A stretch of DNA of 53,320 nt from the NCBI GenBank assembly GCA_040384765.1, contig JAZKIQ010000005.1:125927-179246 (forward strand), written 5' to 3'. Positions 29,400 through 49,556 of the stretch are shown piece by piece. The notes under the pieces were generated by a model. It was not told the origin of the DNA. It made no database searches and saw only the letters and a program-made list of their open reading frames with translations. The translations under genes and the position numbers were made by a program. The first letter of the stretch is position 1; every line of letters starts with the position of its first letter. The DNA is from Patescibacteria group bacterium. Its GTDB lineage: Bacteria > Patescibacteriota > Minisyncoccia > Phycocordibacterales > JBBUBG01.

Positions 29400-29558
29400 G
29401 GGTCAATGATCGGGATATGCTCGCTTCACTTCGCTTTAGAAACCCACGGTTTCTAACGGCTACGCCTTTTCCTCCACGGGAAGGGATACTCTCCCTTCCC
29501 GACCCCATCCCCGCAATCCCGATCATCAACTCCTCATTTCGTTTAAACTTCACTTCGG
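29400..29558 (-). repeat. tRNA-Thr 3' flanking element (antisense copy + core + direct copy of the tRNA 3' end)
   Basis: Inverted copy caatcccgatcat at 29514-29526 and direct copy at 29404-29416; GGGGTC-hairpin core between them. Confidence 0.75.
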
Positions 29559-29631
29559 AGCCAATGATCGGGATTGAACCGATGACCCCCACCTTACCAT
29601 GGTGGTGCTCTACCAGCTGAGCTACATTGGC
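29559..29631 (-). tRNA. tRNA-Thr (anticodon GGT)
   Basis: GCCAATG...CCACC AT GGT AA GGTGG...TTCAATC...CATTGGC T. Confidence 0.93.
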
Positions 29632-30865: not shown

Positions 30866-30978
30866 GAAAACCGTACTGCTTCCCCCTTCGGTGCGAGCAA
30901 AATTATACTTTTTTGTAAGGAAATTGTCCACGAAACATCTTTACAAACAGCGGCGAAGGGGTATTATGAAATCTCCAT

Positions 30979-31049
30979 CGCGGGGTAGAGTAACGGTAAC
31001 TCATGGGGCTCATAACCCCAGCATGCGGGTTCGATTCCCGCCCCCGCAA
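30979..31049 (+). tRNA. Initiator tRNA-fMet (CAT)
   Basis: C1:A72 mismatch, GGG/CCC pairs in the anticodon stem, CT CAT AA loop. Confidence 0.93.
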
Positions 31050-31240
31050 CAAAGATACAAAGCAGGGCCCCGTAAGGGGCGTTTTGCTTTGTATCTTTGT
31101 TGCGGGGAGCAAGGTGCTTCTGCACCTTACGTGCGGGAATCGAAAGGCACAAGCATATTTTCGCACTAGCGAAAATGCCGAGCCGGGGTCGCGGAAAGTT
31201 TTTGTGACAACAAAAACTTATCTGTGACCGATTCCCGCCC
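31050..31240 (+). repeat. tRNA-fMet 3' flanking element (antisense copy + core + direct copy)
   Basis: gttgcgggg and gcgggaatcgaa are antisense to the tRNA; core ggggtcgcggaaag..tgtgacc; direct copy gattcccgccc. Confidence 0.8.
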
Positions 31241-31280
31241 TTGTAAGGAAACATCCGCGACCGATGAACCCGAATCGTAC

Positions 31281-31856
31281 CTAAATCTTCCGGATTAGCC
31301 CAAACTCGAGGAAAACGCGTTCGAAACGGTCGATTGCCAGCCGAGCTTCTCTTTTGGTAAGCCCGAAGTTTAGTCCCTCATGCGCAATTTTATTGCGCAC
31401 CTTATGCGCCTCCCACGCGTCATCTAAAGTTCGGAAGTCACCCGGCACTACGTTCTTAAGCTTCTCACCTACCGTCTCCCCGGGAATGGCAAGCGAGCGT
31501 AGAAGCTCATCGAGAATCGTATCCGCCTCGAGAATGGCCAGTTTCCAATCCGAAGGATTTTCACTCCCTGCGTGTTTCTTCACCTCTTCCCACTGACCCT
31601 GTCGTGGAGGGCGTTCCTCATCCGGGGTAAGAGTTGGCACGACGAATGAAGATTTTTTGCGAACTTCCCTAAGCTTGATAAGCGCGTACACCAGCCCCAC
31701 CAGAAACGCACCCCCAAGGAAAATACAAAAAAGCCGCAACAGCACTAAAAACTGAGAGAAGACAAGGCTCGAGCCCGAGGGTATGCCGCTTACCGGCTCA
31801 AATACCCACGAGTAGATACGATAAAAAAGATACTGAAGGTTGAGAAAGCGAAACAC
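31281..31856 (-). CDS. Conserved hypothetical membrane protein
   Basis: TM segment then WKLAILEAD..LD...GETVGEKLK...AWEAHKVRNKIAH. Confidence 0.75.
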   Translation of the reverse strand: MFRFLNLQYLFYRIYSWVFEPVSGIPSGSSLVFSQFLVLLRLFCIFLGGAFLVGLVYALIKLREVRKKSSFVVPTLTPDEERPPRQGQWEEVKKHAGSENPSDWKLAILEADTILDELLRSLAIPGETVGEKLKNVVPGDFRTLDDAWEAHKVRNKIAHEGLNFGLTKREARLAIDRFERVFLEFGLIRKI

Positions 31857-31892
31857 TGTAGATTTAGTGTATCACGAACACAAAAGGCGCCC

Positions 31893-33356
31893 TTAGCGAT
31901 CCTGTGAAAAATCTTTTGCGATAGAAAAGAGCGTCGCTTCATCTCCCCACGCGCCCATAAGTTGAATGCCAAACGGTAGCTGTTTGCCATCACGCAGAAG
32001 CGTTCCGGCTGGAACCGAAATAGCAGGAACGCCGGCTATGTTGGCAGGAACAGTAAAAATATCTTCAAGATACATCATAAGCGGATCGGCGGTTTTCTCT
32101 CCAAGCTTGAAGGCTGGAGAGGGTGTGGTAGGCGTCAGAATGGCATCAATCGCAGGAGTATCCTTTGTTCCTGCAAAAACAGAAGCAAATTCGCGCCGGA
32201 TCATATCGCGCACCGCAGTAGCCTTTTTGTAATACGCATCATAATATCCCGCAGAAAGCACGTAGGTTCCCAAAAGAATGCGACGGCGAACCTCGGGCCC
32301 AAAACCCTCCCCACGCGACTCCAAGTACTCATCAAGGAGCGTTGCCGCTTCCTTATGAAAGCCGTAGCGCATGCCATCGTAGCGCGCAAGATTCGTCGAG
32401 GCTTCCGCGGGCATCAAAATGTAATACACCGCCAAGGAGTATGGCATGTGCGGTAAATCGATCGGCACAATTTCATATCCCAGAGTCTTCAGTCGTGTTT
32501 GTGCATCTTGAAATCGGACGAGAGCATCAGGGTCGATCCCTTTTTTAAGAAAGTCCACGGGCACCCCAATTCGCCTAGTTGTGCGAGCAGGTGCACCGTA
32601 TCGGTCGTTAGGTAGCGAAGTGCTATCCATCGGATCATGCTGATTGAGGGCACGGAAAAGAATCTCAACATCTTCGACTGTTTTACCGATAGGGCCAATG
32701 ACATCGAGCGACGATGCCATCGCAATCAATCCATGGCGTGAGATGCTGCCGTACGTTGGCTTGAGACCCACAACCCCGCACAGCGCTGCTGGTTGGCGCA
32801 CCGAACCACCGGTGTCCGAGCCTAGCGCGACAAGCGCCATATGTGCCGCGACAGCAGCCGCAGAACCTCCCGAGCTTCCACCTGGCACACGCTCGAGGTC
32901 ATGGGGATTTTTTGTCGGCCCATACACCGAACTCTCCGTTGAGCTTCCCATTGCGGCATCGTCCATATTGGTCCGACCAAGAAGGACCGCACCCGCAGAT
33001 CGAAGGAGTGCCGTGGCCGTAGCATCGTACGTGGCTCTGTGGTTGCGAAGAATATTCGAAGCAGCCGAGGCAATCTCACCCTCAACAAGAATGTTGTCCT
33101 TAAGAGCTATCGGAATTCCTGCGAGCGGCGAAAGCTTTTTTTCGAGATCAATACGGGAGCTATTTTTGAGGGTGCTGTCCACCTCTTCAGCTGATCTTCG
33201 GGCAGACTCATACAGCTCAACATAGGCGTGAATATCACCGTCGCGCCGAGTAATCTCAGCATGGTACGCATCAAAAAGCTCTCCGGCGGAAAAAAGGCGG
33301 TTTTTTAGACCGTCGTGAGCCTTTTTAATTGAAAGTGTCGAGAGGTCGATACTCAT
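31893..33356 (-). CDS. gatA: Asp/Glu-tRNA amidotransferase subunit A
   Basis: Amidase signature PGGSSGGS, GSDTGGSVRQP, RRRILLGTYVLSAGYYDAYY. Confidence 0.96.
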   Translation of the reverse strand: MSIDLSTLSIKKAHDGLKNRLFSAGELFDAYHAEITRRDGDIHAYVELYESARRSAEEVDSTLKNSSRIDLEKKLSPLAGIPIALKDNILVEGEIASAASNILRNHRATYDATATALLRSAGAVLLGRTNMDDAAMGSSTESSVYGPTKNPHDLERVPGGSSGGSAAAVAAHMALVALGSDTGGSVRQPAALCGVVGLKPTYGSISRHGLIAMASSLDVIGPIGKTVEDVEILFRALNQHDPMDSTSLPNDRYGAPARTTRRIGVPVDFLKKGIDPDALVRFQDAQTRLKTLGYEIVPIDLPHMPYSLAVYYILMPAEASTNLARYDGMRYGFHKEAATLLDEYLESRGEGFGPEVRRRILLGTYVLSAGYYDAYYKKATAVRDMIRREFASVFAGTKDTPAIDAILTPTTPSPAFKLGEKTADPLMMYLEDIFTVPANIAGVPAISVPAGTLLRDGKQLPFGIQLMGAWGDEATLFSIAKDFSQDR

Positions 33357-33637
33357 TTTTCCAGAATCTTTTTCACTGCAATATATGATCCTTCCCGGTC
33401 GGGTGCCTGCGACAAAATCGACTCACTAAATCGCCCTTTTTCATAGGCATCTGTATCCGAGCGCATCACATTGCGAAGGTCACTATCCGCGAGCACCTCG
33501 GCAGGTCCAGCACCAACAGCTTCAAGCTCAGACACGTATCCAAGAATGCTCGAAAGATCTTTTTTAATTTTTGCCATCTCCTCAGCACGAATAGCCACTC
33601 TGGCCAAACGCGAAAGATGTGCGATATCAATTTCCAT
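33353..33637 (-). CDS. gatC: Asp/Glu-tRNA amidotransferase subunit C
   Basis: HLSRLARV..ILGYV..L..NVMR.D..AP; overlaps gatA. Confidence 0.9.
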   Translation of the reverse strand: MEIDIAHLSRLARVAIRAEEMAKIKKDLSSILGYVSELEAVGAGPAEVLADSDLRNVMRSDTDAYEKGRFSESILSQAPDREGSYIAVKKILEK

Positions 33638-33652
33638 CTGTTCGATACTACC

Positions 33653-35665
<2,013 letters not shown>

Positions 35666-35681
35666 CTACACGCCCCAGTGG

Positions 35682-35803
35682 CCAGTTGTTCGTAAAATCT
35701 GTGAAGGCGAGGCGACGAGGAGTAAAAGACTGAGATGTTACGGTACATTGAAGTTTTTTACGACGAAGTCAACGACGCATGCGCAGATTTTACGGGCAAC
35801 TGG
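35682..35803. repeat. Stop-codon-anchored palindromic element, copy E
   Basis: Arms ccagttgttcgtaaaatctg / cagattttacgggcaactgg; the right arm includes the last codons and stop of the pilX-like gene. Confidence 0.75.
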
Positions 35804-36608
35804 AAGCGCCGCAGTACTTTTGGACAAGTGTTCTTTCGACGCGTCTCGTCGATGCCGCATCACACACGCTATAGCCTTGCGAATCGATCTCGGTTGTAAT
35901 TTCACCCGGCTCTACCACCCCGTTAGCGTTGTCCGTCCACGTTTTCTTTACGTTCACCTGGACGCATGCCGTGCGGAGTTTTTGCGCTGGGGTAAGCGCT
36001 CCTACATTTTCATCTATATAGATAAAGTCCGACGTCGCCAGAGCAGTCAGCGGAAGAGCGGCACTCCACACCGGAGTCGGCGGAGCGTATGAGATGAAAT
36101 TAACCCCGAGTGGCTGGCCATAGCAGGAGATGAGATTTGAGGTGGGAGCAGAGTAAGGGGCATAAACGGTACCCGGAACCGGAAAGGGGTTTTCGGGGAA
36201 GATAGCTTGGCCAGCCGTGTTTGGTGCACCGCGCTCAACATCATCGTGGTGAAGATCCCAGTAGAGCACGCACTCCACTCCTGCATCTGCCGCATAAAAG
36301 GCACGCACCGAGTCGTTTTGTGTCAACGACAAAAGCTGCTCCTTGTATGCAACATTTGCAAGGGCGAGGCCAATCGCAAGCACGATGCTCGAGATGAGAA
36401 CCGAGATAAGGAGAACTACTCCCTGCTTTTTATTGCCTAGTGAAGTGAGCGTCGCGAAAGTGTACTCACTTTCATGACCAAACGAGCGACGGCAAAAAAG
36501 GTGAATACCCCGTCGGCTTTGCCGCGGACCCGCGTAGTGCGTACTCGCACACTGGGGCCGGGGGCTTGCTACGGGGTTAATACCCTTTTTATTCTTTACC
36601 TTGAACAT
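35790..36608 (-). CDS. PilX-like minor pilin with an extended leader
   Basis: KKQG|VVLLISVL hydrophobic helix, AFYAADAGVEC. Confidence 0.8.
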   Translation of the reverse strand: MFKVKNKKGINPVASPRPQCASTHYAGPRQSRRGIHLFCRRSFGHESEYTFATLTSLGNKKQGVVLLISVLISSIVLAIGLALANVAYKEQLLSLTQNDSVRAFYAADAGVECVLYWDLHHDDVERGAPNTAGQAIFPENPFPVPGTVYAPYSAPTSNLISCYGQPLGVNFISYAPPTPVWSAALPLTALATSDFIYIDENVGALTPAQKLRTACVQVNVKKTWTDNANGVVEPGEITTEIDSQGYSVCDAASTRRVERTLVQKYCGASSCP

Positions 36609-36609
36609 A

Positions 36610-37269
36610 TTAATTTCTTAAAAGAGCGCTACGCAAAATATATGAGCGTGCCGGAGCGTTGGCGCGCTCAGGCGGCCACGACACCGTGACCGTAAGCCAC
36701 AGCTCATGATCAGCCGCAGACGAAACCTGCTTAAGCGTAAAGGTGCGCGTGAAGACAGTTGGTGAACAGTCCCCGGGAGGGCACCCTGTCTGATAAAAAA
36801 GTCCGGCGGACGTGCTTCGAGCAAGAGGCGTGCACGAGCTTCCACAGGTCGCCACCGTCCTATTCACTGAGTCCACCGTGCACACGGCAGTGCTCGGCGC
36901 TCCTGCGAGTGTCACACATGAGCTAAACGTAGGGCTGCTGGTCGGCCACCGGCCTCCTGGTACGGAGCTGTTCAAAAGATCGTTGTCACGCAAGTTGCGA
37001 ATTGCTTCGACCCCTTCCTGTGCAAGAAATGTAGCGGTAGCGCTATTTTGAATATAAACAGAATTTGATACGTTGCGTGCAGCAACTGAGAGCGGGCCAA
37101 CAACACCAATAAGGAGTATCGTGAGCGCCACCAGTGTTTCAACCAAAGTAAATCCCGCGCGTGAAGATCTTGGAGCTTGAAACCTGTAGCTTGAAACTTT
37201 TGATGCCGAATCGCCTTTGGCGACTCGGCCAAGCTTCAAGATATAGGTTTCAAGTTTCAAGAATGTCAT
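36610..37269 (-). CDS. PilV-like minor pilin with an extended leader
   Basis: RAG|FTLVE, ATFLAQEGVEAIRN.RD. Confidence 0.85.
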   Translation of the reverse strand: MTFLKLETYILKLGRVAKGDSASKVSSYRFQAPRSSRAGFTLVETLVALTILLIGVVGPLSVAARNVSNSVYIQNSATATFLAQEGVEAIRNLRDNDLLNSSVPGGRWPTSSPTFSSCVTLAGAPSTAVCTVDSVNRTVATCGSSCTPLARSTSAGLFYQTGCPPGDCSPTVFTRTFTLKQVSSAADHELWLTVTVSWPPERANAPARSYILRSALLRN

Positions 37270-37271
37270 GG

Positions 37272-37955
37272 CTAGTTTTCCAAAACGCGCTGAGAGAGCG
37301 TGGTTTGAAGCGTAAAAATAGTGGCGTCACCAGCCGCGGCCTTAGCAGAGTTTGCCGCGACAACCTTTCCCTCCACAACAATAAGGACACGCGGCTGCAG
37401 TTGGTTGTCTTTCAGAACACTGTTGTCGGCAAAGAAGGTAAGCTTTGTGATCTCCACGTCTGGCGCTGTCAGATCATAAAAAGAGGGGGTGCACGCACCC
37501 TGACATGACCCTGCCTGAATTCTTTTTGTGGCGGTATTGAGCTTGTACTCAACATGAGTCGAGCCGTCTGCCGCAAGAAAACCGAAAGAGTTGGCGCCAC
37601 TCGAGCACGCCTTCGGATCTGTTATCGGTGGAGGCGTAGCCGAGCCGGATGTCACGTCACAGTGGTAGCTGGTCCCCACTTTTATTTTGCGTGACATCGT
37701 CTCAAGCGCAAAGTGTACGTTGTCCACAACCGCTCGCTTAGCGGCGGCGGATCGCGCCAGATTACCCACAGCAATAACTGAAGAGATGGCAAACGTCGAC
37801 ACGACAGAAAAAAGAGTCATCGCAACAAGAAACTCCGGCAGGGTAAAACCCGCTCTACCACATGAATCATGAAGCATAAAACATGAAGCAGGGCCTTTTT
37901 GCCTGCGGCAAAAAGGCTTCCCTGGATGATTCATGTTTCGTGTTTTATGGTTCAT
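37272..37955 (-). CDS. PilW/PulJ-like minor pilin with an extended leader
   Basis: RAG|FTLPE, C-terminal LQTTLSQR; start at ATG 37955 or TTG 37970. Confidence 0.82.
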   Translation of the reverse strand: MNHKTRNMNHPGKPFCRRQKGPASCFMLHDSCGRAGFTLPEFLVAMTLFSVVSTFAISSVIAVGNLARSAAAKRAVVDNVHFALETMSRKIKVGTSYHCDVTSGSATPPPITDPKACSSGANSFGFLAADGSTHVEYKLNTATKRIQAGSCQGACTPSFYDLTAPDVEITKLTFFADNSVLKDNQLQPRVLIVVEGKVVAANSAKAAAGDATIFTLQTTLSQRVLEN

Positions 37956-37959
37956 GAAC

Positions 37960-38637
37960 TTACTTAACATAGATCTGTCCTGGGAGTGTCACATGTACCT
38001 CCCTTTTAAGCGACCCGTCAACATTTGCAAGAACAACGACCGCTTCTACAAAGGGTGTTCCCGAAGTCGACGCAATACCATTCACATTCATATCCGGCTC
38101 GGGGCGGCGGAACACCACATCGAGCGATGTTACGAGAGGCCCCGTACCGCTTGCGATACACCCAGGCAAAGCAGCTATCTGCGCTTGGGTCGCTGCACAC
38201 AGGCGCAAAATACGCACCGAAGATGGAAGCGTGCCCGTGCCCGCAGGAGGAGTGTCATTTGGGTTAGTCGGCGGGAGCGTATAGAGAAAATCCCCTGGTG
38301 GCACCGGAGCTACGTTTACGGGCGCAGTGTCAGCAAAAAGCACGTATCCTTGGGCTTCCTGCGGCGTAGCTGTACTAAAATGTATCCCGTATGAGACCGA
38401 TACGCTCGGCGCCCCAACACGCTGCACTGCACCAAGAGCATACTGCTGCGCCTGGCGCACTGAGAGCGCCACATCGTTTGCCACGAGCCCAAGAGTAAGC
38501 TGACTGTTTAGCTTTGGATAGTTTGCAAGAACGACCGATGTTAAAACCAGAAAGATGGAAACTACCACCATCATCTCGATCAAGGTGAAGCCCGCACGTT
38601 TAATGCTATCCATTTTGCGATTCGCGATTTTCACCAT
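37960..38637 (-). CDS. FimT/FimU-like minor pilin
   Basis: RAG|FTLIE, RQAQQYA, YGIHF. Confidence 0.82.
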   Translation of the reverse strand: MVKIANRKMDSIKRAGFTLIEMMVVVSIFLVLTSVVLANYPKLNSQLTLGLVANDVALSVRQAQQYALGAVQRVGAPSVSVSYGIHFSTATPQEAQGYVLFADTAPVNVAPVPPGDFLYTLPPTNPNDTPPAGTGTLPSSVRILRLCAATQAQIAALPGCIASGTGPLVTSLDVVFRRPEPDMNVNGIASTSGTPFVEAVVVLANVDGSLKREVHVTLPGQIYVK

Positions 38638-39398
38638 AACGGCACGTAATAGAGATAGGAAACAAGGGTACCCAACACCAGAAACGGCGCAAACGGGATC
38701 ACTGTCCCAACCCCTGTCTCATGTGTGCCTTTTTTATTCTTCCGTGAAATGCGGCGAACTGCCTGCACGAGAAGCATAAGCACCCCAATAGCTGCGCCGA
38801 ACCAGAAGCCAAAAATCACCGCATTGACATTGCGCGGAAACGGGAGAAAAAGCCCCATCCCGAGAACAAGCTTTGCGTCCCCAAAACCCATCCAACGCCC
38901 TCCCGAGACGGCCCACAATAAAACAAAGAAGAGGGCGAGCCCGAGCGCTGATGCAAGGTCAGGTAAAAATGCTGCGCGCGCCACAAATGAGACAGCACCG
39001 AGAAAAATGAAGGCGTACACGAGACCATCAGGGATGATGAAGTGCCGGTAGTCGTACACAGCGATAACAAGCAGGATTGAAAATACGAGCCAGGAGAACG
39101 CGACCGCATACGGGTCCGCACTCTGGTGCGCGAGCAGTGCAAAGAGCAGACCGCTTGCGAGCTCGACCAAGGGATACTGAGTCGAGATGGAGGAGAGGCA
39201 TCTCCTGCATCGGCCACCCTGAAAGAGAAAAGAGAAGACAGGAATAAGCTCATACCATGCAAGTGTCCGAACACACGAGAAGCACTCGGACCTTCCCCCT
39301 ATCCCCTTTCCGGTGTTGTAGCGAAAGATCACCACATTGAGAAAGCTTCCGACGATTGTGCCAAACAGAAAAAAGACGATATCGAGCACCGAAATCAT
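38631..39398 (-). CDS. pilD: Prepilin peptidase
   Basis: GSFLNVVI.R, two CxxC pairs, YD, MGFGD.K, IPFAPFL. Confidence 0.92.
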   Translation of the reverse strand: MISVLDIVFFLFGTIVGSFLNVVIFRYNTGKGIGGRSECFSCVRTLAWYELIPVFSFLFQGGRCRRCLSSISTQYPLVELASGLLFALLAHQSADPYAVAFSWLVFSILLVIAVYDYRHFIIPDGLVYAFIFLGAVSFVARAAFLPDLASALGLALFFVLLWAVSGGRWMGFGDAKLVLGMGLFLPFPRNVNAVIFGFWFGAAIGVLMLLVQAVRRISRKNKKGTHETGVGTVIPFAPFLVLGTLVSYLYYVPLW

Positions 39399-39454
39399 AC
39401 ATATATTGTAGCACGACCTTTTCAAAGAAAACGCCAAAATCTCCCCGTGTACTT

Positions 39455-39502
39455 AGTCTAAAACAAAAGCCCGCTCTTGGAGCGGGCTTTTGTTTTAGAC
39501 TA
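39455..39502. terminator. Strong terminator after the major pilin
   Basis: tagtctaaaacaaaagcccgctc ttg gagcgggcttttgttttagacta. Confidence 0.85.
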
Positions 39503-39513
39503 TACGAGAGAAC

Positions 39514-40008
39514 CTATCTGCACTTCACCGCTCCACTAGCCGCACTTACGATACCCGTAGTGAGCGTATTGCCTGCAAAGCCGTTGCTATCAACACAGTA
39601 CGTTTCTGTAGCAATGTTGTTCTGGAGCCTAACAAATGTTACGTATGTCGCGCCACTAATACCAACTGAGCAGGTTGCTGGATTTCCTCCCTGAGCTGCA
39701 GCTGCAGTAACAAGCTTCGCTACATCCGCGTCAAGACACGCGCCTGTAAAGGCAGGACTGACCGCACCCGTCGCAGATACTGTTCCCAAGCCTGGGGCAC
39801 CATACGAACCATTACCTGTGCCTCCATAAAACACCTCAGCTGCTGTGCGAACGGAGCTGAGTGAGCCCTGTGCGCTCGTGTCCTTTGCCTTCGATCGCGT
39901 TGTCGAGAGCGATGCGAGCACAATCGAGGAAAGGATTCCGATGATTGCGATCACAACGAGAAGCTCGATGAGCGTAAAACCTTTTGTAAACCGATTTGTT
40001 CGTGACAT
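39514..40008 (-). CDS. Type IV pilin (likely major pilin)
   Basis: KG|FTLIELLVVIAIIGILSS, YCVDS; followed by a terminator. Confidence 0.9.
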   Translation of the reverse strand: MSRTNRFTKGFTLIELLVVIAIIGILSSIVLASLSTTRSKAKDTSAQGSLSSVRTAAEVFYGGTGNGSYGAPGLGTVSATGAVSPAFTGACLDADVAKLVTAAAAQGGNPATCSVGISGATYVTFVRLQNNIATETYCVDSNGFAGNTLTTGIVSAASGAVKCR

Positions 40009-40070
40009 AAATTACCTGCTACTAATAATTTTTAAATCTTACGTACTGATACTCTCTATGCTATCACATC

Positions 40071-40580
40071 CTATGGAATGATGTCATAGCAGTTATCAAC
40101 TGCGCCTGCTGCGCCGACTGCCGGAGCAGTTGCGGAATATGCACATCCGCCTGATGAAGGGTGCCCTTCGAAGTCACCCGACACCGCTGGCACCGCTGTT
40201 CCGCCAGCACGCCATAGTGCGTTTGCACCTTTGGTGGTAGCAAGCTCCATGGTCGCTCCCAGATGATATTTCTGGCACGCCTGTATGCATACATACGAGT
40301 AGGCAGCTCCCTGAGGATTGTTTGGAATTTCGGTAATAATATTTGGAGTTTGACCGAGAAGGTTGCCCAACCCAGCTGGGTAAACACCGTTGCGCAATTG
40401 ATATATCTCAAGAGCTTTCTGAATCTCGGCCATATGGCGAAATCGCTGTGCATCGCGTGTGCGCGGGCGCGTATTGGTAAGAGCGGCAAGGACGATGGCC
40501 CCCAAGATACCGATAAGCCCGATTACTACAAGGAGCTCGATCAAGGTGAACCCTCTATTTTTTTGAAAGATCTGTTTCAT
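40071..40580 (-). CDS. Type IV pilin / GspG-like pseudopilin
   Basis: RG|FTLIELLVVI, RDAQR..ALEIY..NGVYP. Confidence 0.88.
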   Translation of the reverse strand: MKQIFQKNRGFTLIELLVVIGLIGILGAIVLAALTNTRPRTRDAQRFRHMAEIQKALEIYQLRNGVYPAGLGNLLGQTPNIITEIPNNPQGAAYSYVCIQACQKYHLGATMELATTKGANALWRAGGTAVPAVSGDFEGHPSSGGCAYSATAPAVGAAGAVDNCYDIIP

Positions 40581-40583
40581 GAT

Positions 40584-41789
40584 TTAAATTCCTGACGTTA
40601 CGCTATAAATCGGACCGAGCACTGACACAAGGAGGAAACCTACTCCCAAACCGAGCGTTACGATCATCACTGGCTCGATCAAGCTTACGATACCATCGAT
40701 CGCACTATCAACCTCTCGCTTGTAGAAGCGAGCAATCGTTTTAAGCACGTATCCAAGCTTGCCTGTCTCTTCACCGATCCTTGTCATCTGCACGACAATT
40801 GCCGGCATCTGAGAAAACCGGGAGAAAGCATTCGAGAGTGGGTAGCCTGCCTTTACCATCTCCATCGACTGCAGGAGGATATCTTTGTACACCTCGCTAT
40901 CTACCACCGATGCTGATATCTCGAGCGCACGAAGCATCGAGATGCCGGAAGAAAGCATGGTATCCATGTTGTCGGAGATACGCGAAAGGTACAGCTTCCT
41001 GTAGAGCGAACCGACGTATGGCGTCGCGAGCTTTGCCTGAGAAAATGCATAGCGGCCAGCGGGTGTCTTGCCATACTGCCATGCCACGAAGCCCAAGATG
41101 ACCAGAAGAATCAGAATAAATATCCCGTAGTCGAGGAGCGCAGCAGAAAGGCCGAGCACAATCTTGGTATAAAACGGAAGCTCTTGGCCTGTATCAGTGA
41201 GAATGGTCGAGAGCTTCGGAATCACCACGGTGAGCATCACCACCATTACGCCGATGAACGAGAGGATAACGAAAGCCGGATACGCGAGTGCACTGCGTAC
41301 TTTTGTCGTAATTTCGTAGTTGCGCTCAAGGTAATCTGCAAGATACGAAAATGATTCAGACAGCTTTCCTGCTTCTTCACCTGCGCGCACCATGTTTACA
41401 TAAAAAGGACTAAAAGCGTTTGGGTGCTTCGCCATCGAGTTTGAGATCGTCATACCGGTCTGGATATCATCCACCAGCTCGGAGAGGACATCACGCAGGT
41501 TTGCGGACTCACTTTCTGCAGCAAGAAGCTTGAAGATACTGAGCACCGATACCTTTGCCTCAAAAAGGGTAGCGAGCTGGCGCGACACAATAACCATGTC
41601 GCGGTTTGAGACACGCGTCGTAAAACGAATATTAGAAAAGAGGTTCGTGCGATTGATAGCCTCCTCAATGGAAATAATCGTAAATCCCCGACTCTGGAGC
41701 GTGGTGATCGCGGTATCTTGAGAGTTGGTATCGATGCTTCCCTCCTCGATCCGACCCTCTTTGGTTGTGACTTTATACGAGTACAGCAT
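40584..41789 (-). CDS. pilC: Type IV pilus platform protein (GspF family)
   Basis: RQLATL, VRAGEEAGKL, ALAYP, GEETGKL, LIEP. Confidence 0.93.
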   Translation of the reverse strand: MLYSYKVTTKEGRIEEGSIDTNSQDTAITTLQSRGFTIISIEEAINRTNLFSNIRFTTRVSNRDMVIVSRQLATLFEAKVSVLSIFKLLAAESESANLRDVLSELVDDIQTGMTISNSMAKHPNAFSPFYVNMVRAGEEAGKLSESFSYLADYLERNYEITTKVRSALAYPAFVILSFIGVMVVMLTVVIPKLSTILTDTGQELPFYTKIVLGLSAALLDYGIFILILLVILGFVAWQYGKTPAGRYAFSQAKLATPYVGSLYRKLYLSRISDNMDTMLSSGISMLRALEISASVVDSEVYKDILLQSMEMVKAGYPLSNAFSRFSQMPAIVVQMTRIGEETGKLGYVLKTIARFYKREVDSAIDGIVSLIEPVMIVTLGLGVGFLLVSVLGPIYSVTSGI

Positions 41790-41795
41790 TCGAGT

Positions 41796-42863
41796 TTAGA
41801 CCAATCTTTGCAACCCTTTTGGATTAAAGGAGTGGTGATGGGCATTTTCAAGCGTAATCTCTCCTCTCCGCACGAGCTCTGCGAGCGAATGGTTCATGTC
41901 GATCATCCCTTCGTTTGAGCCCGTTTCGATCATCACGTTTATTTCAGTCGTTCGCTTCTCTCGGATAAGGTTTGAAACCGCGGGTGTATTTATCAAAAGC
42001 TCATATGCAGGCACAAGCCCACCCGACACCCGAGGGATGAGGCGCTGCGAGAAGATACCCAGAAGTGAACCCGCGAGTTGAATGCGAATCTGATCTTGCT
42101 GCCCCGCAGGAAACGAGTCGATAATACGGTCGATCGTTTGCGCAGCGTTGTTTGTATGGAGCGTTGAAAAGATAAGGTGGCCCGTTTCCGCAGCAGTAAC
42201 AGCCGTCGCAATGGTTTCCGGGTCGCGCATCTCCCCCACAAGGCCCACGTTTACATCCTGGCGAAACATCGAGCGGAGGGCAGCATGAAAACTTGTCGTA
42301 TCAAAACGCACTTCGCGCTGATCGATAATCGATTTGTCAGGAGTAAAGAGATACTCGATAGGATCTTCGATCGTCACGATATGCTGAGCCCGGTCGCGAT
42401 TGATACATTCGATCATCGCCGCAAGCGTGGTTGATTTTCCTTGCCCGACAGGCCCCACGACCATAAAAAAGCCTTGTGGCTTGAAACAAAAATCTCTGAG
42501 TATGGCGGGGAGATTGAGCTCCTCAATCGTTTTCAGGTGCTTTGGAATCGAGCGCAGAGCGGAGCCCACATACCCTTTCTGGAAAAATGCATTGCCTCGA
42601 AAACGATCTCCGTTCGCTGTCGAATAAGCAAAGTCCATCTCTTTGTTCTCGAGAAACTGCTTCTGGGCATCTGGCGAAAGAAGTGCGAGGGAGATACCCC
42701 GAGCGTCCTCAGGAGAAAGTACCGGCTCTCGCACAAGCGGAATGAGAGTTCCTGAAACTCGAATGGTGGGACTATGCTCTGCTGTGATATGCAGGTCGGA
42801 CGCCCCTTCTTTGAGCGTTATCTCGACAAGCCGCTCTGCTGTTTTTTGATAATCAGTTGCCAT
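41796..42863 (-). CDS. pilT: Type IV pilus retraction ATPase
   Basis: ASDLHI, GPVGQGKSTT, TIEDPIE, GEMRD, AETGHL, NLIRE. Confidence 0.93.
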   Translation of the reverse strand: MATDYQKTAERLVEITLKEGASDLHITAEHSPTIRVSGTLIPLVREPVLSPEDARGISLALLSPDAQKQFLENKEMDFAYSTANGDRFRGNAFFQKGYVGSALRSIPKHLKTIEELNLPAILRDFCFKPQGFFMVVGPVGQGKSTTLAAMIECINRDRAQHIVTIEDPIEYLFTPDKSIIDQREVRFDTTSFHAALRSMFRQDVNVGLVGEMRDPETIATAVTAAETGHLIFSTLHTNNAAQTIDRIIDSFPAGQQDQIRIQLAGSLLGIFSQRLIPRVSGGLVPAYELLINTPAVSNLIREKRTTEINVMIETGSNEGMIDMNHSLAELVRRGEITLENAHHHSFNPKGLQRLV

Positions 42864-42875
42864 GCAAATAAAAAG

Positions 42876-43277
42876 CTATCTCTTCGCGTGCTTCTCAACG
42901 ATCTCCCCTACCTTTTTGGTCACTTCGGTCGGCGTGCAGCTCGCTTTAATAATGTAGCCGTCCACCCCAAGCGCCACCCCCTTGTCGATATCTTCTTTTT
43001 GTCCAAGGTTGGAGAGAACAATGAGCGAGCTATCTTTAGCAAGCTTGCGTTTTTTGATCTCCGTGAGCAGCTCAAAGCCATCCATTCCTGGCATTACGAT
43101 ATCAAGCATTACAATATCTGGAGCAGCCTCATCCTTCGAAAGACGCTCGAGCGCTTCTTGAGCATTAGGGGCAGTCGCAACCGTATATCCCGTCTCGGTA
43201 AACTTCATCGCATACATGTCGAGCAGAAATTTATCGTCGTCAACGATAAGGATGGAATGTTTTTTCGGAGTGTCCAT
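42876..43277 (-). CDS. Single-domain response regulator (receiver only)
   Basis: LIVDDD, LDIVMPGMDG, LSN, YIIK. Confidence 0.9.
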   Translation of the reverse strand: MDTPKKHSILIVDDDKFLLDMYAMKFTETGYTVATAPNAQEALERLSKDEAAPDIVMLDIVMPGMDGFELLTEIKKRKLAKDSSLIVLSNLGQKEDIDKGVALGVDGYIIKASCTPTEVTKKVGEIVEKHAKR

Positions 43278-43320
43278 GGAGCGGATATTATTCTTGTTCT
43301 ATATAGTACACCATTTGACG

Positions 43321-43450
43321 CTCTAGAGTGGATTAGAAATCCCCAGATTCGAGGCGTCGAGGAGAGATAAAGCCAAGCTGTAGAGACCTACAGCTTGGCT
43401 TTTCTTGACGACGACAACGAAGAAGGTGGGGATTTTAAACATCTCTAGAG
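43321..43450. repeat. Stop-codon-anchored palindromic element, copy C
   Basis: Arms ctctagag..aaatcccca / tggggattt..ctctagag; core gattcgaggcgtcgaggagagataaagccaagctgta..tacagcttggcttttcttgacg. Confidence 0.85.
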
Positions 43451-45085
43451 CCTGTTGACTTCCTCAAATGGGACTATCCCCTTAAACGCCTTCAACATCG
43501 CATCCTCCTTCATCGTGAGCATCCCCTTTGCGCGAGCAGTTTTATAAATCTCCTGCTCCGTCGGATTTTTGAGAATGACCGTCTGAAGATCTTTATCGAT
43601 AGGAAGCATCTCAAATACGGCTAGTCGGCCTTTTGTACCAGAAGAGCATGTCGGCGAAGGGATCGCACGATACACCTCCTTTGGATATTCGATCTCCTTC
43701 TGAAACTCAAGCGGCAGATCAGCAAACTCTTTTTCGAGAATAAGCTTTGTTGCCCCCTCCACCGCAAGAGGCGACTTCGAATCTTCGCACAACACGCGCA
43801 CAAGGCGCTGGCCGATCGCGAGAATAAGTGTTGGAGCAATAAGATAGGGATCAACACCCATATCAATAAGTCGGGGGATAACGCCAATAGCGTTGTTGGT
43901 GTGGAGCGTCGAAAACACCAAGTGCCCCGTAAGCGCAGCCTGGATTGCGAGCTGAGCAGTCTCCTTGTCGCGAATCTCACCCACCATGATCACATCGGGG
44001 TCTTGGCGAAGGATAGAGCGAAGTCCGTTGGCAAATGTATATTCGATCTCTGGCCGCACCGAAGACTGGTTTACTCCAGCAATGTTGTACTCCACCGGGT
44101 CTTCAAGCGACACAATGTTCTCGCCCTCTCGGTCGAGCTCGGTAAGCATGGAGTAGAGGGTTGTCGATTTTCCTGATCCAGTCGGACCCGTAATGAGAAT
44201 GAGGCCATAAGGCGCAGCAAGCGCATCGCGAATAGCTTTGAGATTTTTTGCCGTAAGGCCGATCTGGTCGAGCTTTTTCACCCCCTTATCTTGGTCGAGA
44301 ATACGGATCACCACCTTCTCTCCAAAAAAGGTCGGCAAAGTGGAGACGCGAAAATCTACTCGACGACCACCAATAGTGGCAGAGAAGCGTCCGTCTTGCG
44401 GTTTTCGCTTTTCATCAAGCTTCATGTTGGTAAGAATCTTGATGCGCGCCACCACCGCCTCATGCACACTTATCGGAAGCGAAAGGCTTGTATAGAGAAC
44501 CCCATCGACACGAAATCGGACACGAACGCGCTCGCCAATCGGCTCAATGTGCACATCAGAGGCGTTGCCCTCAGTCGCGTGCTGGATGATTACCGCAACA
44601 ATCTTCGTAATAGGCGCCTCCTCTGTAATCGACGCCTTTTCACCGCCTTTAATAGCCCCACCCACCTCCTTTTCAAGCTCAGACGCCGCAGCCTCCTGCT
44701 TTGTTGAACCCGCAGCTTCTGGCACAGCAGCTCCTTGCGTAGAGTTCGGAAGATCTCCTATCGCCGAGCCGAGCTGTCCAAGCGCTTTTCCCACCTGACT
44801 TGAAAGTCCCTTGAACTGCTTTAACACTTCCGTGAAATCTTCTTCTGAAATAAGAAAAAAGGTGTACGGAAGACCAATCTGCGATGCGATAAACGCAACC
44901 GCATCACGGCCTTCAATATTGTCCTGATCTACGATACCTACTTCGAGAACACCGTCTTTGAGCCCAAGCGGAACAAATCGATAATGAACGACCGACTCTT
45001 CGGGAATAAGCTTAAGAACCTCAAAAGGAATTTGATACCCCTTGAGATCTCGTTTTGGGATTCTGGTAGTAGAAGGTTCTGCCAT
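43445..45085 (-). CDS. pilB: Type IV pilus assembly ATPase (GspE/PilB)
   Basis: ASDVHIEP, PQDGR, GPTGSGKSTT, LRQDPD, GEIRD; start taken at MAEPS. Confidence 0.93.
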   Translation of the reverse strand: MAEPSTTRIPKRDLKGYQIPFEVLKLIPEESVVHYRFVPLGLKDGVLEVGIVDQDNIEGRDAVAFIASQIGLPYTFFLISEEDFTEVLKQFKGLSSQVGKALGQLGSAIGDLPNSTQGAAVPEAAGSTKQEAAASELEKEVGGAIKGGEKASITEEAPITKIVAVIIQHATEGNASDVHIEPIGERVRVRFRVDGVLYTSLSLPISVHEAVVARIKILTNMKLDEKRKPQDGRFSATIGGRRVDFRVSTLPTFFGEKVVIRILDQDKGVKKLDQIGLTAKNLKAIRDALAAPYGLILITGPTGSGKSTTLYSMLTELDREGENIVSLEDPVEYNIAGVNQSSVRPEIEYTFANGLRSILRQDPDVIMVGEIRDKETAQLAIQAALTGHLVFSTLHTNNAIGVIPRLIDMGVDPYLIAPTLILAIGQRLVRVLCEDSKSPLAVEGATKLILEKEFADLPLEFQKEIEYPKEVYRAIPSPTCSSGTKGRLAVFEMLPIDKDLQTVILKNPTEQEIYKTARAKGMLTMKEDAMLKAFKGIVPFEEVNRL

Positions 45086-45098
45086 TTGTAAACATAAT

Positions 45099-45440
45099 CT
45101 AGCGGTCGAGAGAGGATTCTGAAGCGGAAGGTGCAACACCAAACGGAAGGAACGGATTGCTATTGCGCACCGGCTGTGGAGTCAGAGGCACCCCAAAGTC
45201 AACAAGCTGAGTAAAGGCAGGGTTGGTAAAAATGCTGGTGTCTATCGAGATAGTACGGAGCCCTGCAACAATCGAAAGAAAGTCGCTCGACTCTTTGGAG
45301 ATAGCTCCTCCTGCGCCAAGCGCCCCCGTTTGGGTAACTGACGATGAAGAGTCGCCCCCTCCAAAGCCAAACAGATATGCCGCTCCTCCGAGAAGAGCGA
45401 GCGCGACGATGGCAATGATGATGATATTTTTCTTCGGCAT
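45099..45440 (-). CDS. Membrane-anchored hypothetical protein in the PilP position
   Basis: N-terminal TM, C-terminal R.NPF.P; located after pilO. Confidence 0.7.
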   Translation of the reverse strand: MPKKNIIIIAIVALALLGGAAYLFGFGGGDSSSSVTQTGALGAGGAISKESSDFLSIVAGLRTISIDTSIFTNPAFTQLVDFGVPLTPQPVRNSNPFLPFGVAPSASESSLDR

Positions 45441-45468
45441 AGGAGTGTGGTCGACTTAAAGAGTATGT

Positions 45469-46014
45469 TTAAGACTTGCGCCAGTAAGTGCGCAACTTAA
45501 TCGCATAGTCATTCTGATCTTTGTCACCCGCCTTAAACTTCAGATCAACGATATCCACAACGCGCAAGCTTCGATCGAGGTCTGCGAGAAAACGTTTGAG
45601 GTTTTGGTACGAACCGCGAACACCGAAAGCAAGGGTGACGCTCGAGTATCGCTTTCCATCAGGGCCGATCGGTGCGTTATCTTTGAGCGCCGACTCATTG
45701 CCCACCTCAGCATCACGCAAGCTCATGCCGTAGCGGCCTGCGATAGTATCCACATCGATAATAAGACGCACGTTGTCCACTTGATCAGGAATCGCTTTGT
45801 CGAGGCGAGCACGATCGTTGGGATCGATGGCGTTGTACTGCTTGAGGAGGCCGTCACGCACCGTTGCAAGCTCGGATGCGCTCGAGAGCACCTGCTCGAA
45901 GCTCGCATTGTCGGTCTTGATAAAAGCGATCTCATCCATGAGCGGCTGAGTAAAACCGAAAAAGAGTCCGGCTGCAATCGCTATTAGCAAAAATGGGATA
46001 AGGAATCGGCTCAT
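45469..46014 (-). CDS. pilO: PilO-like protein
   Basis: TM, coiled coil, GSYQNLKRFLADL..SLRV; synteny. Confidence 0.8.
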   Translation of the reverse strand: MSRFLIPFLLIAIAAGLFFGFTQPLMDEIAFIKTDNASFEQVLSSASELATVRDGLLKQYNAIDPNDRARLDKAIPDQVDNVRLIIDVDTIAGRYGMSLRDAEVGNESALKDNAPIGPDGKRYSSVTLAFGVRGSYQNLKRFLADLDRSLRVVDIVDLKFKAGDKDQNDYAIKLRTYWRKS

Positions 46015-46685
46015 TGTTCTATTGTTTCTTCTGTGGAGCTATTTTCCGCGGACTCAGCTCCCGCCGGCTCTGCTACAGCTGGCACCCCAGCAGAGGCCCC
46101 AGCAAGCACCGGCACCACAAGGAGTGAAGGGTCGACAGTTGCCGACATCAAAAACTGCACCCTACCTTTGTCATCAAGCCGAAGCTCGGAAAATACAATA
46201 TTCTTGAATTTTCCTGTCTTGCTAAAGGAGTCTGACTGGAGAGCGATAGCCGCGTAGCCGTTTGAGTCGCCGGTAAGACGAATCTCCGGAGCTCTTCCGT
46301 CCTGTACTGCGTAGTCGAACGAGCGAAAGCGAACCGCCTGCAAAGTAGACGCTTCGAGAAGAGCGAAGAGCGGTGTAAGGCTCGTATGCTGACCAAGAAG
46401 CTCCTTGAGCGAAACGATCTTTGCATCGATACGGGACAGCTCTTCGAGTGTTCCCGGCTCAAACTTGCTTTTAGCAATCTCGATCGATCCTTTAAGCGAC
46501 TCCGCTTGCCCAAGCAGAGTAAATTTATAGAGATACTGCCCACCGAAAAGGAGCACTGATGCTACGAATACAATTACGGAAAGAATAATAAGCAAGCCAA
46601 ACCGCCGCTTTTTTGTAGGGACAGCAGGAGTAAAACTTTTTCTCGTACCAAACGAATCTGAAGATGAAGGAACAAATGGCTCCAT
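46011..46685 (-). CDS. pilN: PilN-like protein
   Basis: Single TM, coiled coil, ferredoxin-like C-terminus; lies between pilM and pilO. Confidence 0.7.
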   Translation of the reverse strand: MEPFVPSSSDSFGTRKSFTPAVPTKKRRFGLLIILSVIVFVASVLLFGGQYLYKFTLLGQAESLKGSIEIAKSKFEPGTLEELSRIDAKIVSLKELLGQHTSLTPLFALLEASTLQAVRFRSFDYAVQDGRAPEIRLTGDSNGYAAIALQSDSFSKTGKFKNIVFSELRLDDKGRVQFLMSATVDPSLLVVPVLAGASAGVPAVAEPAGAESAENSSTEETIEQ

Positions 46686-46789
46686 TGCTCTTTTAGTGTA
46701 TCACGCAAGGAAAAGAAAGCGTGTCAAAAAGATGTGGATTGAGGACAACCGTGACCCCGGTTCGCTGTTAGGAAGAGATAGGTATATCG

Positions 46790-47006
46790 AGAATCGTCTT
46801 GTAAGGTCCAGATTCGAGGCTTTATTGGGAATACCTGGAGCAATAAAGAGCCGTAAGGAGCGAAGGCGACTGAGGCGGGGCCGAGAGATTTTCTACCAAG
46901 AAAATACTCGTGGCTCGAGGAGAGATAAAGCCAAGCTGTAGCTAACTTACTGCGAGGCTTTTCTCGACGATGGCAACGAAGAAGGTGGACCTTACAAGAC
47001 GATTCT
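46790..47006. repeat. Stop-codon-anchored palindromic element, copy D, with a nested insert
   Basis: 21-bp perfect arms agaatcgtcttgtaaggtcca / tggaccttacaagacgattct; about 95-nt insert at 46821-46914. Confidence 0.85.
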
Positions 47007-48117: not shown

Positions 48118-48151
48118 ACAACGAAAGTTTCCCCCAGTATATCATGAGAGC

Positions 48152-48820: not shown

Positions 48821-48821
48821 G

Positions 48822-49124
48822 CTACCCTTCGATCCTCACATGAACACCATTTTCGATCTTGAACTTTCGCTTCTTGTTCTTTGCGATCTTTTGCACGATC
48901 TCCTTTTCAAGGTCAACACCGAGCATCTGTGCAAGCGACACGAGGTAGATAAATACATCGGCAAGCTCCTCCCCTACATCCGGTAGCTTTTTAACATATG
49001 CGTTAAACGCCTCGGAAAGCTCACCGTGAGTGAGACTAAACTCAAGGCCTACATCCGTCGTATTAAACTTCTTCTCGAGCTTGTTGCTCCAGATCTGTTT
49101 TTGTACTTTTTTAAAATCGAGCAT
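48822..49124 (-). CDS. MazG-like nucleotide pyrophosphohydrolase
   Basis: GELSEA..GEELADV..L..GVDL..KI.KN..R. Confidence 0.82.
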   Translation of the reverse strand: MLDFKKVQKQIWSNKLEKKFNTTDVGLEFSLTHGELSEAFNAYVKKLPDVGEELADVFIYLVSLAQMLGVDLEKEIVQKIAKNKKRKFKIENGVHVRIEG

Positions 49125-49165
49125 ATTTTTTAGGTAGTTTGCTTGCTTACCTTTCTTGCTTCATA

Positions 49166-49252
49166 CGGAGGAGGTGAGATTCGAACTCACGGAACTCTTG
49201 CGAGCTCGGCAGTTTAGTAAACTGCTACCTTAAACCACTCGGTCACTCCTCC
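49166..49252 (-). tRNA. tRNA-Ser with the unusual anticodon ACT
   Basis: GGAGGAG acceptor strand, GCAGT TT ACT AA ACTGC, long variable arm gagctc-gcaa-gagttc, TTCGAAT, G73. Confidence 0.9.
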
Positions 49253-49315
49253 CCAGGACCACCGTATCAAACTGTTTGAAAAAGCACCATGAGTACAGTA
49301 TAGTAAAACCTCATT

Positions 49316-49402
49316 GGAGGCGTGTCAGAGTGGTCGAATGTGCCCCCTTGCTAAGGGGGTAGGGTCTTAAAGCCCTCGGAGGTTCGAATCCTCCCGCCTC
49401 CG
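49316..49402 (+). tRNA. tRNA-Ser (anticodon GCT)
   Basis: GGAGGCG acceptor strand, CCCCC TT GCT AA GGGGG, long variable arm, G73. Confidence 0.93.
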
Positions 49403-49556
49403 TAATGATCCAAACAAAAGCGTTTTTATAGCTTTTTTTGGGTAATCATTACGATGAGGCGGGAGGATTCGAAAGCCGGAGCGCGGCGGCGCGAGGCGGG
49501 GTCGCAAAATTTTTCACGAGAAAAATATTTGTGACCGAATCCCAAGGAAGCCTCCG
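49403..49556 (+). repeat. tRNA-Ser 3' flanking element (antisense copy + core + direct copy)
   Basis: 18-nt antisense copy gaggcgggaggattcgaa at 49456-49473; core ggggtcgcaaaa..tgtgacc; direct copy gaatccc..gcctccg. Confidence 0.8.

Follow-up and report, generated by a model that had tools for sequence, protein, structure and literature searches.

A small structured repeat with arms copied from the neighbouring gene behind tRNA and protein genes of Parcubacteria-type genomes

Introduction

What kind of element lies behind a gene when the DNA downstream holds an antisense copy of that gene's 3′ end, then a folded core without any gene, and then a direct copy of the same 3′ end? A stretch of 53,320 nucleotides (nt) from a Patescibacteria group bacterium (assembly GCA_040384765.1, contig JAZKIQ010000005.1, positions 125,927 to 179,246 of the forward strand), hereafter the window, raises this question behind three of its eight tRNA genes as called by ARAGORN, those for the initiator tRNA-fMet, tRNA-Ser(GCT) and tRNA-Thr(GGT). 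Writing A for the gene end and its direct copy and A′ for the antisense copy, we confirm that the copies and the layout at the three tRNA sites are real: tRNA, A′, folded core, A. The rule that emerges from these and many other sites is gene end A, spacer or terminator, A′, core, A, and the layout is not specific to tRNAs, the arms deriving from the upstream gene whether that gene encodes a tRNA or a protein. With about an even chance of being right, we read the element as a family of small, geneless, structure-dependent, non-autonomous mobile repeats that spread within and between Parcubacteria-type genomes and settle behind genes on the gene's own strand.

The genomes concerned are among the smallest of bacteria and about 90% coding by a crude count of open reading frames (ORFs), yet they hold tens of copies of this element of about 90 nt. 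Its fold is conserved over many Parcubacteria lineages and stands outside Rfam, which makes it a new RNA or DNA motif to catalogue, and a closing stem derived from the neighbouring gene is absent as a feature from the repeat families with which we compared it.

Results

Arms match the neighbouring tRNA

At tRNA-fMet the sequence A that is copied downstream is the final ~20 nt of the tRNA, from the T-loop to the 3′ end. In a scoring of each trailer with the 24-nt tails of the genome's 43 tRNAs, 42 of them non-cognate, the cognate inverted copy wins at all three sites, with a score of 12 at fMet (best non-cognate 11) and 13 at Thr(GGT) (best non-cognate 9; for Ser(GCT) see Table 1). The direct copy scores 12 at fMet (best non-cognate 10.5) and 13 at Thr(GGT) (7.5), while that of Ser(GCT) fails to exceed its controls. 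A preliminary description of this DNA had proposed one architecture shared by the three tRNAs; it stands in that A′ beats every non-cognate tail at each of them, and falls short in the direct copy of Ser(GCT). Genome-wide, the cognate score lies above that of every non-cognate tail in at least one orientation for 13 of 42 tRNAs.

The same correspondence is present in other species, where arms and orientations were counted at 80 loci with 85 cores, taken from the at least 118 stretches of a species-representative genome collection that contain an exact 28-mer of the core. At the 52 scorable tRNA-linked sites the direct copy scores at least 10 in 25 cases (vs 1.6% of non-cognate pairs) and the antisense 5′ arm in 17 (vs 2.6%); both reach this score at 11 sites, and many of the remaining sites have arms of just 5-6 nt.

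Behind tRNA-fMet, a terminator-like hairpin (T1), the end of the tRNA and A′ together form one long palindrome, and a conserved hairpin module, hp0, divides A′ precisely at the boundary between acceptor and T-stem. The acceptor part of A′ complements A72, which in the tRNA is opposed by a mismatched C, and so it is the reverse complement of the 3′ strand rather than a copy of the 5′ strand. Other genomes have hairpins resembling hp0, as do the Tyr, LeuTAA, GlyTCC, AlaTGC and His sites. Promoter-like sites stand ahead of tRNA-fMet (30940-30967) and tRNA-Ser(GCT) (49276-49304), and a promoter scan of the window found none within the elements of these two genes, which we call type A.

The direct repeat starts at the T-loop and runs to or beyond the 3′ end of the tRNA. 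Its length ranges from 11 to ~70 nt, and at one locus repeats of 33 nt and ~70 nt go past the tRNA end. At Pro(CGG) the arms fit a displaced, divergent copy of the gene end and not the resident tRNA, and a divergent displaced 3′ half is also found at Ile(GAT). The elements upstream of Ile(GAT) and Thr(TGT) are preceded by a copy of the tRNA's 5′ end. At the Thr(TGT) site (G000:C1:80594-80759, G000 being the source genome) the type A core is interrupted by a nested insert of ~110 nt, and the tRNA-end copy ahead of the core is a diverged version of the first 25 nt. The Pro(TGG) trailer (G000:C4:50136-50560) holds a divergent core, 10 N and two further partial copies of the tRNA end, and looks like a scaffold gap in a repeat array.

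The arms also change with the tRNA between genomes. In G001, which belongs to the same family and another genus, the fMet trailer keeps the order of terminator hairpin, acceptor part of A′, hp0, T part of A′, a core with a long second stem and an 18-nt A, and its arms follow its own T-stem (ACAGG/CCTGT, vs GCGGG/CCCGC in the source genome). Renewal or re-insertion thus keeps the arms matched to the tRNA, and this orthologous trailer together with the cognate scoring bears out the earlier proposal that they track the identity of the host tRNA. The fMet site of a further genome, G003, carries an unrelated AT-rich palindrome without a match to our core model and is not a clean empty site. At the Ser(GCT) orthologues of both genomes the contigs (G001:C1, G003:C3) end directly after the tRNA, which fits assemblies breaking at these repeats.

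The core is a covarying three-way junction

The cores behind tRNA-fMet and tRNA-Ser(GCT) align and covary with nine further copies (11 in all) as a three-way junction. Stem P1 closes the junction and is built from both arms. Stem P2 consists of a base of 3 bp (G-N-C with G-N′-C, the middle pair being variously C-G, G-C, U-A or U-G), an internal loop (GGAG/CGA) and a hairpin that varies, and stem P3 pairs GGTCGC with GTGACC and has an AT-rich upper part, a bulged A and a conserved G-U pair. In the 11 copies 93.4% of the cells are paired, vs 77.4% after shuffling, and 14 pairs are changed on both sides; none of 500 shuffles matches the paired share, the 14 double-changed pairs or the covariation score, and one of 500 matches the count of pair types. 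When the partner strand is slid out of register, pairing falls to 36-50%. Among 118 distinct copies from other species (121 matches, 80 loci), in an alignment that was fitted to the model and so favours the structure, 92.0% of the cells are paired (vs 70.6% shuffled) and 22 of the 25 pairs are double-changed. One G-U pair is conserved in 109 of 117 copies, which assigns the fold to a single strand, that of the upstream gene. Folded singly, elements adopt the closed junction (z-scores of -3.9 to -10.4).

The core at Thr(GGT), whose arms form a closing stem of ~17 bp, is of a different family and has no match to the covariance model of the type A core, R1. The common core that the preliminary description saw at all three tRNAs is therefore one family at fMet and Ser(GCT), by alignment and by covariation, and does not extend to Thr(GGT). 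Its remark that the element was not recognised as a described one agrees with our Rfam scans. At the gathering score of Rfam 15 the whole window yields eight tRNA matches only and no family for the core; at E ≤ 10 the fMet and Ser trailers yield tRNA, tmRNA_permuted (E = 0.27 and 0.49) and, for the long hairpin, miRNA-like matches below threshold. The Rfam models of the hammerhead, twister, twister-sister, pistol, hatchet and HDV-like ribozymes have no match in either trailer at E ≤ 10, and the T-box model has none in the window or trailer scans. By-eye comparison with group II intron domain V/VI, the K-turn and known ribozymes gave no fit, and we draw no claim from it.

Table 1. Coordinates of the trailer elements, their tRNA genes and one further core in the window
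Feature	Position	Strand	Basis
tRNA-Thr (GGT)	29557..29631	-	ARAGORN; Rfam
Thr(GGT) trailer element, multi-hairpin core of different family	29401..29530	-	sequence; fold z = -5.5; no R1 match
A′, Thr(GGT): 13-nt antisense copy	29526-29514	-	sequence
A, Thr(GGT): 13-nt direct copy	29416-29404	-	sequence
tRNA-Met, initiator type (CAT)	30979..31050	+	ARAGORN; Rfam tRNA 62.2 bits
Hairpin T1, intrinsic-terminator-like	31051..31099	+	terminator-like site 31067-31080; sequence; fold
A′(acc), fMet: 8-nt antisense of acceptor 3′ strand	31100..31107	+	sequence
hp0, conserved hairpin module	31108..31130	+	comparable hairpins at other sites; fold
A′(T), fMet: 14-nt antisense of T-stem 3′ strand and T-loop; P1 5′ strand	31131..31144	+	sequence; fold
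R1 match, fMet	31132-31241		C5:157058-157167; 79.9 bits
Type A core, fMet, three-way junction, ends GTGACC at 31229	31145..31229	+	alignments, pair counts
A, fMet: 11-nt direct copy of T-loop and T-stem 3′ strand; P1 3′ strand	31230..31240	+	sequence; control scoring
Further type A core, no tRNA adjacent, conserved hairpin module ahead	46849..46915	+	R1 match C5:172775-172841, E = 1.2e-11
tRNA-Ser (GCT)	49315..49403	+	ARAGORN; Rfam
AT-rich hairpin spacer, Ser(GCT), from tRNA to A′	49404..49455	+	sequence; fold
A′, Ser(GCT): perfect 18-nt antisense of tRNA 3′ end	49456..49473	+	sequence; inverted score 18 vs best non-cognate 10
Type A core, Ser(GCT), short P2 form	49474..49536	+	R1 match 88.5 bits; fold
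A, Ser(GCT): degenerate direct copy of tRNA 3′ end	49537..49556	+	sequence; direct score 8 (best non-cognate 9), within controls

Copies and core types in the source genome

The source genome comprises 822,710 bases and is rated 99.8% complete. A simple core motif occurs in it 10 times, every time just 3′ of a same-strand tRNA, and R1 gives 44 matches at E ≤ 1, of which 38 reach E ≤ 0.001. Twelve of the 44 lie at most 300 nt behind a same-strand tRNA, one lies behind what we read as a tRNA-Cys truncated by the contig end, one is inverted behind tRNA-Gly(GCC), three are solely in tRNA 5′ flanks, and 27 have no nearby tRNA. By our own count on a crude ORF map, some 28 of the 40 top matches (E ≤ 0.0022) are directly downstream of a co-oriented gene or tRNA, and about 12 are antisense or upstream with respect to their neighbours. 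The element is ~85-200 nt in size and geneless throughout.

Several types of core share this layout. The Thr(GGT) core has one paralogue, C5:92147-92236, with 81% identity over 90 nt. A third type, recognised by the motif GAAAAGTAC, stands behind Gly(TCC) and Pro(CGG) and forms the second unit behind Tyr and Leu(CAA). In the variants C, D and E, near-identical cores stand at unrelated loci, every one with its own perfect inverted repeat (13-30 paired positions) as closing stem; in type C these arms are perfect, distinct for each copy and 23-30 paired positions long (22 in a related copy), and two P2 variants and two P3 variants are present in all four combinations. The outer arms differ in every copy, and a short conserved inner repeat is found in types C and D only. 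Among the matches listed there is no third copy of the long arms in types C, D and E, only the arm and its inverted partner, which means that these copies lack an upstream direct copy.

Elements behind protein genes

The preliminary description took the element to be a feature of tRNA trailers, which the 27 matches away from tRNAs and the copies behind rplL, uvrB and other genes contradict. After the rplL stop codon of the source genome (G000:C10:6948-7039) come 9 nt nearly complementary to the last codons, the core, a near-copy of the final 17 nt including a stop codon, and a terminator. The rplL genes of G015 and G037 have an equivalent layout with arms that match each genome's own rplL end; in G015 it is a displaced and divergent gene-end copy that the arms fit, not the resident gene. 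By their coordinates, R1 matches also adjoin rplL in G014 and G032, which brings the genomes with an occupied site to five, out of 54 whose rplL was found. Others have, after the rplL stop, the gene end in inverted copy and then a core that is different. Some genomes have a perfect hairpin of 15-21 bp across the rplL stop codon, and the terminators of this lineage, in the source genome and at the rplL loci, are perfect palindromes of 18-21 bp which include both A-tract and T-tract, far longer than typical intrinsic ones.

A and A′ derived from a coding end are likewise present behind uvrB and behind a membrane-protein gene. The upstream genes have no common theme; by our reading of their sequences they include uvrB, valS, a murA-like gene, a secretion ATPase and membrane proteins.

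Distribution among genomes

A covariance-model scan of related genomes had been proposed with the preliminary description, and it supports a family that reaches well beyond the source genome, with cores that pair better than shuffled ones. R1 has matches in 36 of 41 genomes of the order, from several families and with 1-52 matches each. In an even sample of the phylum, matches are found in 7 of 151 genomes, the source genome included; the 144 genomes without a match at E ≤ 1e-6 show that the model is specific. The record titles among the 28-mer matches listed name Nomura-, Kaiser-, Taylor-, Yonath-, Taga- and Campbellbacteria and 'Paceibacterota'.

In these other species, 54 of the 85 cores have a same-strand tRNA that ends at most 400 nt upstream, with 24 tRNA species represented. 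Within 250 nt, 51 cores stand behind a same-strand tRNA, two are inverted behind a tRNA, five follow a tRNA of the opposite strand, and 27 lack a tRNA. One locus (L142:3556-4179) carries five tandem units at an exact spacing of 149 bp behind tRNA-Leu(CAA), with identical 3′ arms in the four units compared. Among viral contigs the exact 28-mer has no match; a looser pattern gives five loci, roughly the chance expectation by our estimate, of which one is a true model match. A contig from IMG/VR, from which its viral label is taken, has two tandem model matches of 60.6 and 19.7 bits (L187:2845-3188).

Recombinase genes

The source genome has a single gene with a Phage_integrase domain (C4:42538-43509). 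It is XerA/XerC/XerD-like, lies 4 kb from the nearest copy of the element and scores below the cut-offs for integron integrases (148.6 vs 265 bits). No integrase is found within or beside the inserts of 85-200 nt, and the view that the element is geneless, present in many copies and without an integrase in or next to it is upheld by the 44 R1 matches in a genome with this lone Xer-type gene.

Discussion

Comparison with known systems

The components of this element are of known kinds, namely small structured repeats, duplicated tRNA ends and template-switch palindromes; it is the combination that differs. A covarying junction closed by a stem that is copied in both senses from the neighbouring gene, at dozens of loci and in many lineages, matches no family that we tested. 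T-boxes are found in the 5′ leaders of aminoacyl-tRNA-related genes, where they read the anticodon and the NCCA end of a tRNA. Like T-boxes, the element is a multi-copy, potentially cis-acting RNA with a conserved scaffold, segments tailored to a tRNA and mutually exclusive helices; unlike them, it lies behind the tRNA gene itself, copies the 3′ strand of T-stem and acceptor, and is found behind unrelated protein genes too. Integron attC sites and the attP site of CTX phage are folded single-strand recombination sites. They share with the element the conservation of structure over stem sequence, extrahelical or wobble positions, strand specificity and co-orientation at gene 3′ ends, but they are simple bulged hairpins, while the element is a three-way junction with stems copied from a neighbouring core gene. 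Unlike attC, it comes without cassette arrays or an integron integrase, and no dif-like or R-box sequence is recognisable in it, no search for R-box motifs having been made; its neighbours are core genes and the only recombinase at hand is of Xer type.

The T-loop is reportedly an integration sublocation in tRNA genes, as Williams is said to have described in 2002. Integration into a tRNA gene splits the gene, and the island restores it and leaves a displaced fragment (PMC4383910). Islander-type islands and prophages of tyrosine integrases share with the element a tRNA 3′ direct repeat from the T-loop, an intact tRNA upstream, a displaced and in some cases divergent fragment downstream and tandem units. 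The direct repeat of the tRNA 3′ end flanking the insert is thus present, and an integrase gene in or near the insert is absent. Unlike tRNA-gene islands, moreover, the element measures 85-200 nt, has no genes, includes a folded core and an inverted copy of the target, and is found at protein-gene ends and in plain intergenic DNA as well, with dozens of copies in a genome of 0.8 Mb.

MITEs (miniature transposable elements with inverted repeats) and the REP/BIME, ERIC and Correia families resemble it in being short, geneless, multi-copy and intergenic, with stable stem-loops, both orientations and modular variants (PMC10969869, PMC3184786). MITE-like families have conserved terminal inverted repeats and a short, fixed target duplication, whereas the outer stem here is specific to each copy and derived from a gene and the repeat measures 11-70 nt. 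What is conserved here is the interior, with RNA-like covariation, and no RAYT/Y1, TnpB or IS110 protein was found. Neither the conserved ends and fixed duplication of a MITE nor a related autonomous transposase was detected (Y1_Tnp, TnpB and IS110 were searched, DDE was not), and a REP/BIME system, with short GC-rich palindromes and a RAYT gene, is contradicted by the absence of any PF01797 match and by the size and shape of the element, a three-way junction of ~90 nt.

Template switching yields products that share the order A, A′, A with an inverted middle copy, junction spacers and perfect reverse complements as if from one event (PMC8794818, PMC13334657). Three copies of a segment with the middle one inverted are indeed what we observe. 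Unlike such products, one junction here always holds a conserved, shared core, dozens of loci in many species are involved, and copies of 8-20 nt at several loci are shorter than those in the reported triplications (PMC13334657). A literature search over titles and abstract openings, with supplements outside its scope, returned no description of such an element for Parcubacteria or Patescibacteria.

A mobile, non-autonomous repeat

We favour mobility because the copy number ranges widely between genomes, tandem arrays exist, near-identical cores stand at unrelated loci and modules have been shuffled, and because the spread over the phylum is patchy although many lineages have an identical 28-mer. 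The direct repeat would result from duplicative insertion at a gene end, perhaps by Campbell-type or 'ends-in' recombination in which the unit brings its own copy of the gene end; if the unit does carry such a copy, variable direct repeats, displaced divergent ends and the cases in 5′ flanks are what this kind of insertion is expected to leave. The perfection of A′ could be maintained by hairpin-templated copying, that is, a template switch during replication, or else A′ may travel with the unit and let it fold on itself. Template switching is known to generate perfect reverse-complement copies (PMC8794818), and a DUP/INV/DUP layout is termed a 'small inverted triplication' (PMC13334657). The conserved fold would be what the propagation machinery recognises, as single-stranded DNA or as RNA.

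A number of observations speak against such mobile repeats. Junction and loop bases are kept across deep lineages while the stems covary, which is typical of a selected functional RNA, and the same sites (the fMet trailer, the rplL end and a Cys-Leu-Lys-Leu tRNA cluster) are filled in distant genomes, which could mean long functional retention. Among the sites compared there is no clean orthologous pair of a filled and an empty site. Contigs from the source sample that span 30900-49700 of the window cover the elements without differences and include no allele that lacks an element, though contigs cannot reveal rare variants; joints between 31193 and 49516-49519 in contigs of three DNA runs are other organisms' copies of the core. 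No enzyme able to move the element was found among the families searched: the genome has no Y1 transposase (PF01797), reverse transcriptase, TnpB or IS110 DEDD domain, DDE families being outside the search. A simple copying model fails at hp0, which splits A′ at the boundary of acceptor and T-stem and has no mirror in A, and the match of A′ to a new target is not explained by any demonstrated step.

Other readings

The conservation just described is what a functional RNA of the 3′ trailer or 3′ untranslated region would display, acting in cis through a junction that is bound by a host factor or that itself forms, protects or regulates the 3′ end. We regard this as a serious competitor, though less probable than a mobile repeat. 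The strand-specific fold with its conserved G-U pair argues for it, as do the 51 cores co-oriented with an upstream tRNA against two inverted ones, the roughly 28 of the 40 best copies downstream of a co-oriented gene, the recurrent occupancy of the same genes in distant genomes, and the arms that covary with the tRNA at the orthologous fMet locus. A special form of this reading, which we entertain only tentatively, is a two-state switch in which A′ has two alternative partners: the upstream gene's end, so that the cloverleaf is disrupted or the stop codon covered, and the downstream A, so that P1 closes. In minimum-energy folds of read-through precursors a duplex of ~40 bp joins the tRNA 3′ end to A′; elements alone fold closed. 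The cis-antisense switch of the preliminary description is thus compatible with the thermodynamic folds, which would make it physically plausible and at the same time predict that read-through is harmful. Against an RNA function stand the terminator-like hairpins that separate tRNA from element at several tRNAs, so that the element may rarely be transcribed there, and the look of a selfish repeat, with five identical tandem units, 0-52 matches per genome, patchy spread and near-identical cores at unrelated loci. The lack of a theme among upstream genes, the dozen or so of 40 copies that are antisense or upstream, and the Pro(CGG) and G015 rplL arms that fit a displaced copy instead of the resident gene point the same way. 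A search among RNA runs listed none that covers this stretch.

An alternative that we think unlikely is a pairing-guided nucleic acid that propagates or processes itself, with the junction as its active module, A′ as a guide to the 3′ end of the upstream gene and A as its product or internal competitor. Pairing by A′ would then guide one of two processes, the unit's insertion in the form of folded single-stranded DNA or RNA with host enzymes only, or cleavage and processing of the upstream transcript, and we give these particular roles of A′ an equally small chance. We also consider it improbable that ordinary integrase-type elements aimed at the region from the T-loop to the 3′ end of tRNAs left these sites as their scars or miniature derivatives, with the direct repeat as attL/attR and the core as part of the attP of phages or plasmids. 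The preliminary description had set this class aside outright, which went too far, since a repeat from the T-loop to or past the tRNA 3′ end and the divergent displaced ends (at Pro(CGG) and Ile(GAT), and at rplL of G015) form a pattern of integrative insertion, and tandem accumulation of units fits it as well. It has against it that the sole integrase-type gene is of Xer type and 4 kb from the nearest copy, that most matches lie away from tRNAs, that all units are tiny with no long version among the copies seen, that the core is essentially absent from viral contigs, and that structural covariation and an inverted copy are foreign to attP arms. Chance or low-complexity resemblance of the three sites can be dismissed almost entirely; arms as short as some of these, such as the Ser direct copy, can fall within the range of the controls, but cognate scoring, shuffle tests, genome-wide and cross-genome matches and the specificity of the model refute it.

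Should pairing-guided insertion or processing be true, the element would represent a simple, protein-poor targeting system; should template switching be true, it would offer a large natural data set on how perfect RNA or DNA stems are made and kept in step with a gene. As the minimum-energy folds suggest that a tRNA misfolds on read-through, the elements may also bear on tRNA supply in genomes where most tRNA genes are single-copy. The element also accounts for breaks in assemblies of such genomes directly behind tRNA genes, where two contigs end.

Further observations in the genome and the window

Two identical stretches of at least 120 nt lie ~2.4 kb apart at G000:C4:10331 and C4:12729, a duplication unrelated to the element. 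On the minus strand at 49166-49252 of the window, ARAGORN calls a tRNA-Ser with anticodon ACT (Rfam tRNA 54.1 bits), which is divergent from tRNA-Ser(GCT) and ~60 nt apart from it; an A34 is unusual for a serine tRNA. Over 49083-49700 the summed contig depth is ~105 in one DNA run, vs ~6-7 elsewhere in the window, and many other organisms of that sample share the tRNA and core sequences of this interval.

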